Assembly (NCBI GenBank): GCA_050013255.1
Contig: JBEKFP010000001.1
Location: 608,001 to 672,000, forward strand
Source: Candidatus Bathyarchaeia archaeon
GTDB lineage: Archaea; Thermoproteota; Bathyarchaeia; 40CM-2-53-6
Length of the DNA: 64,000 nucleotides
Direction of reading: 5' to 3'
Below are positions 60,546 to 61,337 of this stretch, one piece after another. The notes under the pieces were generated by a model. It worked only from the letters and a program-made list of their open reading frames with translations, ran no database searches and was not told the origin of the DNA. A program made the position numbers and the translations under genes. Each line of letters starts with the position of its first letter. The first letter of the stretch is position 1.

Positions 60546-60603
60546 ATCACAACCAAGGTGCGCTGCTTCTCTCGCTCAGCCCAAGAGTAGATTTGAAAGC
60601 AAT

Positions 60604-60959
60604 AGTTCTGTTAACTTGCCGGCCCATTGGTTTCACCAATCTCTCATCCCTAAAGGTTAGAGGTGCCGGTAAGGAGCCTTGTCATCAGTTGATGAAGACT
60701 GCTCATTAGGTGATATGTGGGTTCTAAACCCGAAAGCTGAGCGGTCCGATGTTGGGTAAAGGTTGCTCCGACCAAGCGTAAAACCCTGACTTGCGAAGGG
60801 TCTAGCTGGCTTCGTGAATGCGAAGCGAGAGCCGTGAGGTTCGCGGCCGTCGCGTCTGCAACTGAAGCGATGGTACAGGAACCGCTGACTGAGCGCAATC
60901 CTGAAAGTCGATGCAGATGAGTTGACTCGGAAGCCAAGAGCCGAAGAGTTAACAGAACC
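60604..60959. mobile_element. 356-bp non-autonomous MITE-like element with IS6-like ends and 8-bp TSD AAAGCAAT
   Basis: GTTCTGTTAACT (60605-60616) / AGTTAACAGAAC (60947-60958) perfect IR, extending imperfectly to about 30 bp; DR at 60596-60603 and 60960-60967. Confidence 0.8.
60615..60945 (+). ncRNA. Candidate large structured RNA inside the MITE
   Basis: More than ten helices found by eye, G-U wobbles that favour the + strand, a GUGA tetraloop, loop-loop complementarity. Confidence 0.55.
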
Positions 60960-60995
60960 AAAGCAATATTAAGAATGGGACAAGTGCCCCGCAAC

Positions 60996-61337
60996 ATGCC
61001 CAGGATCAAAACTCGGAGTTCACGAACCGTTCAATTGTATTCTGAACGGCACATCAACAATGAACGGGACCTCCTAGACTTCATAGAAGCGCTGGACGAG
61101 GATGAAGGGGTTAGAATCGAAGGAAACATCAAGAACCATGAAAACGGCGGCTTCGTATTCGTCGGAACCTACAGGGGCAGCTACTGCGTCAACATATGCG
61201 ACAAGGTGTGGGCCCCAAAGCTGAGACAGTACGTACCCGGCGGAAGAGATGAGTGGTACTACTTCGACAAGGGCAAAGAAGCATTCCGCTTCGTCTTGAA
61301 AGAAGCAAAAAGGCCCCTACGAGCTTGGCTATACTAG
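60996..61337 (+). CDS. Hypothetical protein
   Basis: Protein-like composition; TATA-like TATTAA at 60967-60972. Confidence 0.65.
   Translation: MPRIKTRSSRTVQLYSERHINNERDLLDFIEALDEDEGVRIEGNIKNHENGGFVFVGTYRGSYCVNICDKVWAPKLRQYVPGGRDEWYYFDKGKEAFRFVLKEAKRPLRAWLY

Follow-up and report, generated by a model that had tools for sequence, protein, structure and literature searches.

A gene-less IS6-type element of a Bathyarchaeia archaeon that probably carries the gene for a TnpB guide RNA scaffold

The window analysed here is a stretch of 64,000 nucleotides (C1:608001-672000) from the genome of a Bathyarchaeia archaeon of peat, which amounts to 2.46 Mb in three contigs (C1 to C3 in the coordinates below). 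It contains a gene-less unit of 356 bp (60604-60959) with 12-bp inverted ends of the IS6 type, that is, a miniature inverted-repeat transposable element (MITE). The cargo of this MITE is very probably the gene for the scaffold of a TnpB guide RNA (omega RNA), with a predicted promoter of its own and an extra structured 5' domain of 150 nt. The element is a variant of a known system and not a new class of RNA.

The element and its insertion site

The element lies between two identical copies of the 8-bp target-site duplication AAAGCAAT (60596-60603 and 60960-60967). Its left terminal inverted repeat, AGTTCTGTTAAC (60604-60615), belongs to the family consensus GGTTCTGTTAAC, which has the GG tip and the CTGTT motif of the IS6 family (PMC7986276); in this copy an A replaces the first G of the tip. 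The right terminal inverted repeat, GTTAACAGAACC, occupies 60948-60959. These repeats and the features that follow are all given for the + strand.

From left to right, the element consists of the left repeat, a left arm (60616-60680), an RNA 5' domain (60681-60831) with helices P1 to P5, and an omega-RNA core (60832-60959) with helices P6 to P11 and a candidate pseudoknot. The left arm is homologous to the region 5' of tnpB in longer sister elements and contains a TATA-like box, TAAA, at 60651-60654. The right repeat doubles as the 3' strand of P11 and as the tail directly before the guide. The predicted guide segment (60960-60979) begins with the right copy of the duplication. On the other side, TTTG (60592-60595), which resembles a transposon-adjacent motif (TAM), stands directly 5' of the left copy.

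A DNA contig from a peat metagenome, belonging to a strain that is ~90% identical, joins 60573 to 60963 and has a single copy of the 8 bp. Because this related strain has an empty site, the unit can be recognized as an insertion. A first-pass annotation, made from the sequence alone, had described it as a MITE with the shell of a DDE transposon, and the IS6-type ends and the 8-bp duplication agree with that description. The sole open reading frame (ORF) in the MITE is a minus-strand frame of 119 aa (60650-61009). It has no match in Pfam and crosses the RNA, and it is treated as spurious.

Sister copies and their relation to tnpB

Sister copies were found by BLAST and with nucleotide profiles in the organism's own genome, which contains five further gene-less copies and two copies that bear tnpB, each with its own 8-bp duplication. 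The gene-less sisters lie at C2:477462-477819; at C2:82803-83527, where the copy carries a 375-bp insertion; at C1:~262180-262529 (350 bp, duplication CTTAATGC, between an acyl-CoA-dehydrogenase-like gene and Rieske/suf genes); at C3:~219767-220037; and at C2:~426183-426560. A reading of the copies at C1:262k, C3:219k and C2:426k as 'solo' modules without a left end was rejected, since all three possess inverted ends, an 8-bp duplication and a left arm of their own, though a diverged one.

The two long copies (C2:62149-63427 and C1:854024-855281; 1.26-1.28 kb) have tnpB as their sole gene. The gene products, of 404 and 383 aa (C2:62206-63420 and C1:854101-855252), match the Pfam family PF07282 (Cas12f1-like TNB; 2.5e-24 and 9.6e-22), and both also match solved Cas12f and ISDra2 TnpB chains. 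The RuvC motifs IDRN, ME(R/Q)LTG and VDRDVNAA, together with a zinc ribbon, can be read in both proteins. Both genes look intact, and the genome has no further tnpB gene of this family. The first-pass annotation had suggested looking at the proteins of longer copies, and these proteins are TnpB.

The MITE resembles the long copies at both of its ends. Its left ~75 nt align with the stretch from the left end to the start codon of tnpB, and the counterpart of its right ~130 nt, in the same orientation and at 76-81% identity, is formed by the final ~100 nt of coding sequence in tnpB and by the right end. Read in frame, the right part of the MITE gives RAVRFAAVASATEAMVQEP, compared with RALRFGAVAPASEAMVQEP in TnpB. 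A nucleotide profile of the core recovers all six MITEs and both tnpB elements of the genome.

The sequence that encodes a TnpB guide RNA spans the tnpB 3' end together with the right transposon end (PMC10097598, PMC10055086). Since omega RNAs are encoded there, a match to the C-terminal codons of TnpB fits an omega RNA. The first-pass annotation had proposed an undescribed non-coding RNA, and had named an interior aligning to a transposase coding sequence as something that would refute this view. The 3' part does align in this way, to C-terminal codons of TnpB. Nor is this an undescribed kind of RNA: homology to the tnpB 3' end and to the right transposon end of the sister elements extends over its 3'-terminal 128 nt, which have the stem and pseudoknot topology of an omega RNA (PMC10097598).

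The middle 150 nt (60681-60831) have no detectable counterpart in the tnpB genes; a nucleotide profile of this region matches the six MITEs only. The idea that the 5' domain is diverged tnpB coding sequence was rejected on these grounds.

MITEs commonly come from internal deletion. The element could likewise be an inert relic, a deletion derivative of a tnpB element that has inherited its omega-RNA sequence, is moved passively and carries an idle RNA, and both the expression of the MITE RNA and its binding by TnpB are inferred. Such a relic is nevertheless unlikely. The 5' domain is not derived from tnpB, yet its helices are kept by compensatory changes across three genera, and the gene-less copies outnumber the tnpB copies by 6 to 2 in this genome.

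Structure of the RNA

The fold was examined on an alignment, A2, of 19 gene-less copies from 11 genomes; comparisons of the core alone cover 48 distinct cores. When the element is folded and compared with dinucleotide shuffles, the + strand has z = -6.25 and the - strand z = -5.5. RNAalifold finds compensatory changes at 26 of 71 pairs on A2. A curated structure of 72 pairs, which includes the candidate pseudoknot, has 96.2% of its cells paired, against 89.0% in shuffles. Both sides change at 26 of its pairs, against 14.8±1.8 in shuffles (0/500 reach this number) and at most 15 when the partners are slid along the alignment; the covariation score is 0.278, against 0.03-0.06 with partners slid. 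The first-pass annotation had described a folded RNA of several domains, which these figures bear out.

The imperfect pairs indicate the strand and the level at which selection acts. G·U cells number 175 and A·C cells 19, and several G·U pairs are invariant. This excess assigns the RNA to the + strand, that of tnpB as well, and points to selection at the RNA level, as the first-pass annotation had suspected from imperfections that were mostly G-U. It also makes it most improbable that the structure works as DNA, for instance as single-stranded hairpins during transposition, or on the - strand. The - strand does fold well, and a passage of one paper describes the ends of IS200/IS605 elements as functioning as DNA hairpins (PMC13565253). 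However, the same positions would give A·C mismatches on the - strand and weaker G·T pairs in DNA, and the shell of the element is of the DDE IS6 type, with inverted ends and an 8-bp duplication, rather than that of a hairpin-dependent HUH element.

The boundaries of the RNA are sharp. Conservation sets in abruptly at G60681 (GTCATCAG...) and stops just as abruptly at ...ACAGAACC (60959), both in the 19 copies and in the 48 cores; the flanks of the copies are unrelated. Such sharp limits, one coinciding with the predicted start and the other with the right end, again argue against an inert relic.

Five helices make up the 5' domain. P1 (60682-86/60691-95) is TCATC/GATGA. P2 (60697-704/60739-46) is GACTGCTC/GAGCGGTC and has compensatory changes at six pairs; within it, the GGG/CCC part of the hairpin GGGTT/AACCC drawn by the first-pass annotation is backed by covariation. 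P3 (60749-53/60775-79) and P4 (60788-91/60799-802) follow. P5 (60806-15/60820-29), which contains GCTTCGT/GCGAAGC, extends to nine pairs, five of them with compensatory changes.

The core begins with P6 (60832-35/60843-46), whose loop is GAGGTTC. A hairpin GAGCC-GTGA-GGTTC had been drawn here by the first-pass annotation, but it is contradicted by covariation, which supports CCG/CGG around the loop GAGGTTC. P7 (60853-60/60912-19) is a long-range helix of 8 bp which encloses P8 (60863-65/60908-10), P9 (60877-80/60899-902, CAGGA/TCCTG) and P10 (60883-85/60893-95). P11 (60921-24/60950-53) lies at the right end. The strands of the candidate pseudoknot are GGTTC (60838-42) and GAACC (60955-59). The omega-RNA core is the best-conserved and most strongly covarying part of the RNA.

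P7 illustrates this covariation. Over the 48 cores nearly all of its positions are filled by two, three or four types of standard pair, in variants such as GTCTGCA/TGCAGAC, CTTCCA/TGGAAG, CTCGCA/TGCGAG, TCCGCA/TGCGGA, CTCCCA/TGGGAG, GTTGGA/TCCAAC and CCGCAA/TTGCGG. Some copies have broken pairs, as in P7 of one of them (G006a), which would suit an inert relic. The first-pass annotation had seen a kissing loop in GTCTGCA/TGCAGAT. The complementarity is real and covaries; the kissing geometry is not retained, because the hairpins drawn around the two loops are unsupported, and the pairing is more plausibly an ordinary long-range helix around a hairpin domain.

At the right end, covariation links GTTAAC to its partner (GTCAAG/CTTGAC, GTTACC/GGTAAC), while ACAGAACC is nearly invariant. 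The P6 loop has a second complement in the interior, GGAACC in ACAGGAACC, but this one lies within P9.

Among the other pairings of the first-pass annotation, TCATC/GATGA, GACTGCTC/GAGCGGTC, GCTTCGT/GCGAAGC and CAGGA/TCCTG are all supported by covariation on A2. GTCGA/TTGAC, ACCCT/AGGGT and GTTGGG/TCCGAC do no better than shuffles. CCGTCGC/GCGATGG is ambiguous, being 91% paired with a single compensatory change. The left-arm helix CTTGCCGGC/GCCGGTAAG is dropped, as its position is 5' of the predicted start of transcription and it is not kept from one subfamily to another.

Two copies have an additional hairpin of ~34 nt (GCGCTGG...CCAGCGC plus a T-rich run) in the P6 loop before GGTTC, namely C2:~426183-426560 and a copy of another genome (L033, G043:C4:899-1206). 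It leaves the candidate pseudoknot strand intact.

The 375-bp insertion of the copy at C2:82803-83527 (L014:204-928; duplication GGGCTAGG) interrupts the RNA between P3 and P4 and, on the strand opposite to it, encodes a 109-aa protein of the form CxxC...HN...CxxC (ORF L014:381-710, -), which has weak matches to HNH endonucleases (phrog_4234, E = 0.001) and none in Pfam. It looks like a small homing-type nuclease gene within a guide-RNA gene.

Comparison with known RNAs

The first-pass annotation had recognized no RNase P, SRP, riboswitch or intron core, and Rfam gives no match at gathering score on the whole window. With E values up to 10, the region matches only the group II D1-D4 model (RF02005; 11.1 bits against a gathering score of 49 bits, E = 1.2), and this match is absent from seven homologous loci. 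A hammerhead-like or C/D-box reading of the TGATGA/CTGA motifs was also rejected, since TGATGA is part of the Watson-Crick hairpin P1 and none of the ribozyme or snoRNA models gives a match. Of the roles that the first-pass annotation had guessed at, a guide scaffold is favoured, while no ribozyme or intron model matches.

The best structural comparison is with the omega RNA of ISDra2, which has a scaffold of 116 nt. This contains stem 1, then a long-range stem 2 with stem 3 inside it, and finally stem 4 beside the guide; a pseudoknot joins the loop of stem 1, as its 5' strand, to nucleotides -5 to -3 relative to the guide, as its 3' strand (PMC10097598). The 128-nt core of the MITE has the same order: P6 with the loop GAGGTTC, P7 enclosing P8 to P10, P11, and the tail AGAACC. 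This four-stem architecture is backed by compensatory changes in P6, in P7, which encloses P8 to P10, and in P11. As in ISDra2, the nucleotides directly before the guide are complementary to the loop of the first stem.

In 46-48 of 48 copies GGTTC (60838-42) could pair with GAACC (60955-59), and both strands are invariant. From this complementarity and the analogy with ISDra2, a pseudoknot GGTTC/GAACC can be proposed as a candidate. GGTTC is invariant also in the gene-less copies, where it no longer encodes Arg-Phe; invariance without coding constraint is not expected of an inert relic.

Further likenesses can be found among IS200/IS605 omega RNAs in general. These, too, overlap the 3' end of tnpB, stop at the right transposon end and take their guide from flanking DNA. 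They have a core of ~120-130 nt, and the C-terminal tail of TnpB that the overlap encodes is dispensable.

The differences are equally clear. The MITE RNA has no sequence similarity to the ISDra2 RNA and no Rfam model. Its carrier is a DDE element of the IS6 type, with inverted ends and an 8-bp duplication, rather than a Y1/HUH or serine-recombinase element. Finally, the gene-less MITE has a conserved, covarying 5' domain of 150 nt, whereas the 5' half of the ISDra2 RNA is disordered.

Gene-less derivatives of IS200/IS605 elements that carry omega RNAs for TnpB in trans have already been described (PMC10055086). The palindrome-associated transposable elements (PATEs; PMC10055086, and those of Haloquadratum, PMC3119063) are such protein-less tnpB derivatives, which keep both ends and the guide-RNA gene and, as the MITE would, need transposase and TnpB both in trans. 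PATEs have subterminal palindromes and neither inverted ends nor a duplication; the element described here is an IS6-type MITE with an added RNA domain.

TnpB associated with DDE transposases is known from rare branches, for which IS630, ISL2 and IS1031 are named as partners in parts of two papers (PMC10691335, PMC13565253). There, as here, TnpB is found inside symmetric transposons with inverted repeats, and 'solo' tnpB genes are flanked by the ends of DDE elements, with no more than 250 bp between the end and the 3' terminus of tnpB. The passages considered name neither IS6-type partners (SWIM plus DDE_Tnp_IS240), nor hosts among the Bathyarchaeia, nor MITEs that carry only an omega RNA. Within the portions of the literature covered, the following are not found together: an IS6-type shell, an omega-RNA-only MITE with a promoter and a covarying domain, and a TAM beside the duplication.

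The predicted promoter and transcription

An A/T box is found at -30 to -27 before G60681 and is 84-95% A/T in the 19 copies (TAAA, AAAT or TTAA), where T-A stands before the predicted RNA start. In the window the box is TAAA (60651-54). When the left ends of gene-less and tnpB copies are aligned, the same box lies ~27 nt before the ATG of tnpB, as expected for a leaderless archaeal mRNA. By comparison with known archaeal promoters, the box in the left arm would be the promoter of tnpB, kept by the gene-less element, and transcription is predicted to start at ~60680-60681. In the gene-less form, the structured 150-nt RNA domain would then replace the ORF. The spacing of the box is kept in all subfamilies, which also speaks against an inert relic.

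A nanopore metatranscriptome (X23) contains one contig of 243 nt which spans 60761-60989, from P3 to 30 nt past the right end, with 94% identity and a depth of 2.1. It gives a weak hint of transcription. Another run (X24) covers 60761-60873 only and is probably DNA; neither run reveals the ends, strand or level of a transcript.

Downstream, the MITE ends 15 nt 5' of the ATG (60975) of an ORF of 120 aa (60975-61337) without a family match. A transcript leaving the MITE would read into this ORF, and the predicted guide overlaps its start codon. The region upstream of the ORF has been displaced by 356 bp through the MITE.

This neighbourhood brings up the question of a functional RNA that is independent of TnpB, either self-cleaving or self-splicing, or a regulator of the adjacent gene, with a borrowed transposon end. 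The position of the MITE before the ORF would suit a regulator, and the 150-nt domain has no known relative. Parts of the IStron literature also describe the union of an intron and an omega RNA in one element (bioRxiv 10.1101/2023.11.20.567912, PMC13521648). Even so, such an RNA is very unlikely. In eight homologous loci no ribozyme or intron model matches even at E values up to 5-10; the start is predicted inside the element, so that the left end would be outside the RNA; conservation and covariation are strongest in the omega-RNA core; and the copies occur in unrelated contexts.

The predicted guide and the target site

If the RNA is a TnpB guide RNA scaffold, then by analogy the guide is predicted to be the DNA that follows 60959, AAAGCAATATTAAG..., which consists of the right copy of the duplication and the flank. 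An IS6-type element makes an 8-bp duplication on insertion, so the duplicated target would form the first part of the guide. In the window, the target at an empty site would be TTTG, AAAGCAAT and ATTAAG...; the predicted target of the MITE guide can accordingly be written as TTTG followed by AAAGCAATATTAAGAATG, and the predicted target sequence of the guide is AAAGCAATATTAAGAATGGG. The empty site of the related strain, TTTG AAGGCAAT ATTAAG, differs from the predicted guide by one mismatch.

Among 20 independent insertions flanked by duplications, gene-less and tnpB-bearing and from several genomes, the bases 5' of the left duplication are A or T at -3 in 18/20, T at -2 in 19/20 and a purine at -1 in 20/20. 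At the mirror positions after the right duplication, the corresponding numbers are 11/20 each. A bias tied to the orientation of the RNA fits what a TAM predicts, because TAM, duplication and right flank together make up the target at an empty site. The bias thus reads as a TAM (..TTR), which TnpB would recognize.

The transposon shell and its partners

Elements of the IS6 family have ends with GG tips and a cTGTt motif, and produce direct target repeats of 8 bp (PMC7986276). The ends of the MITE family, GGTTCTGTTAAC and GTTAACAGAACC, have these features, and 8-bp duplications are found in 20 copies. MITEs of the IS6/IS26 family have been described before; they share the GG tips, CTGTT, the 8-bp duplication and the absence of an ORF, and those listed measure 227 and 336 bp, compared with 356 bp here (PMC7986276). 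In the present family, by contrast, the interior is a selected RNA gene and not filler, and the partner transposases have an N-terminal SWIM zinc finger.

Autonomous partners were sought with a pattern scan for the same ends in genomes of the archaeal family. One genome (G028) has an element of 3151 bp with the ends GGTTCTGTTAAGTTGTCGG and the duplication TTTCTTGA, which encodes a 372-aa protein with SWIM and PF13610 (DDE_Tnp_IS240) domains. A second genome (G051) has an element of 2272 bp with the same ends and no duplication. The transposases of these two elements are 372-381 aa long and combine a SWIM zinc finger with PF13610.

The organism's own genome also contains two genes for SWIM plus DDE_Tnp_IS240 proteins, at C1:183284-184594 (-) and C2:560133-561269 (-), with 437 and 379 codons from stop to stop. 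They may be domesticated, may have lost their ends by decay, or may act in trans as the source of transposase for the MITEs.

Distribution

A family-wide search found the module in 22/59 genomes of the archaeal family. At the sensitivity of BLAST, the 5' domain was found in 10/58 other genomes of the family and in none of ~340 genomes sampled across the rest of the class.

Another genus has MITEs of ~360 bp with the same inverted ends and a recognizable core (a GAGGTTCG loop, a CTCTCA/TGAGAG helix and the terminal stem), joined to an unrelated 5' region. Examples are L083 and L084 (G024:C42:61643-62005 and G024:C62:83389-83746), and one genome has at least six copies with paired ends. TnpB relatives occur in 4/5 other tested genomes that carry the gene-less form.

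Several minor matches of the own genome can be added. An orphan fragment of the left-end type, GGTTCTGTTAACTTGTCGG, lies at C2:479453-479494 and has no partner within 2 kb. At C1:844049-844099 there is a weak match to the 3' end of the core (E = 0.015). A tRNA-like match of 135 nt (L013:1529-1663, C1:855328-855462) begins 47 nt past the right end of one tnpB element; at 26.8 bits it falls just below the gathering score of 29 bits, and it is possibly an intron-containing tRNA.

Proposed mechanism and significance

The following mechanism can be proposed for the MITE. The tnpB promoter in the left arm would drive transcription from ~60680-60681. The RNA would consist of the family-specific 5' domain (60681-60831) and then the 128-nt omega-RNA core, and the transcript would cross the right end into the flank, which would supply the guide. 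TnpB would load this RNA in trans, from C2:62206-63420, which has the closer core sequence, or from C1:854101-855252. The complex of RNA and TnpB could then cut unoccupied alleles by reading the TAM (..TTR) and the target, and recombinational repair from the occupied copy would insert the MITE there. Movement to new sites would depend on an IS6-like SWIM-DDE transposase provided in trans.

Several points weigh against an omega RNA that works in this way. Both strands of the pseudoknot are invariant, which places it beyond the reach of covariation, and its 3' strand is also the end to which transposase binds. The solved ISDra2 omega RNA needs no 5' domain of 150 nt (PMC10097598). The sole evidence from RNA is the single contig of low depth (2.1) and 94% identity, from a metatranscriptome in which DNA may be present. 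Target preference of the transposase could account for part of the TAM-like bias, as the mirror side is mildly enriched as well (11/20). One of the five tested MITE-bearing genomes has no TnpB relative, at 89% completeness of that genome, which an inert relic would also explain.

The remaining points concern transposition. Around the two IS6-like DDE genes of the own genome no GGTTCTGTTAAC-type ends and no duplications were found, so the tnpB elements and the MITEs are both non-autonomous. IS6 elements are, moreover, thought to move by copy-in through a cointegrate and without excision (PMC7986276). The rationale usually given for TnpB, to restore the element after excision, therefore does not obviously apply.

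A more far-reaching possibility is tentative and rather doubtful. IS6-shell MITEs that carry only an omega RNA may be hyperparasites, which borrow a copy-in DDE transposase as well as TnpB in trans. In that case the 5' domain would represent a functional RNA module of a new type that helps them to out-compete their tnpB parents, and the strict TAM next to the duplication would indicate that RNA-guided homing works even in a family that does not excise. If this were true, the 5' domain might load TnpB, shield the 5' end of the RNA or be cleaved off during processing. Homing could act between copies of the chromosome or after an exchange of DNA.

In practical terms, the family yields a compact TnpB from an archaeon (383-404 aa), for which the scaffold is defined and the TAM predicted (..TTR), along with ~48 natural variants of the scaffold.

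Cas12 descends from TnpB, whose biology is known almost entirely from the IS200/IS605 and IS607 families, which excise scarlessly. The MITE shows a guide-RNA gene that would live alone, with its own promoter and an added structured domain. Its family offers a natural test of what an RNA-guided nuclease may gain for a copy-in transposon that makes target duplications.

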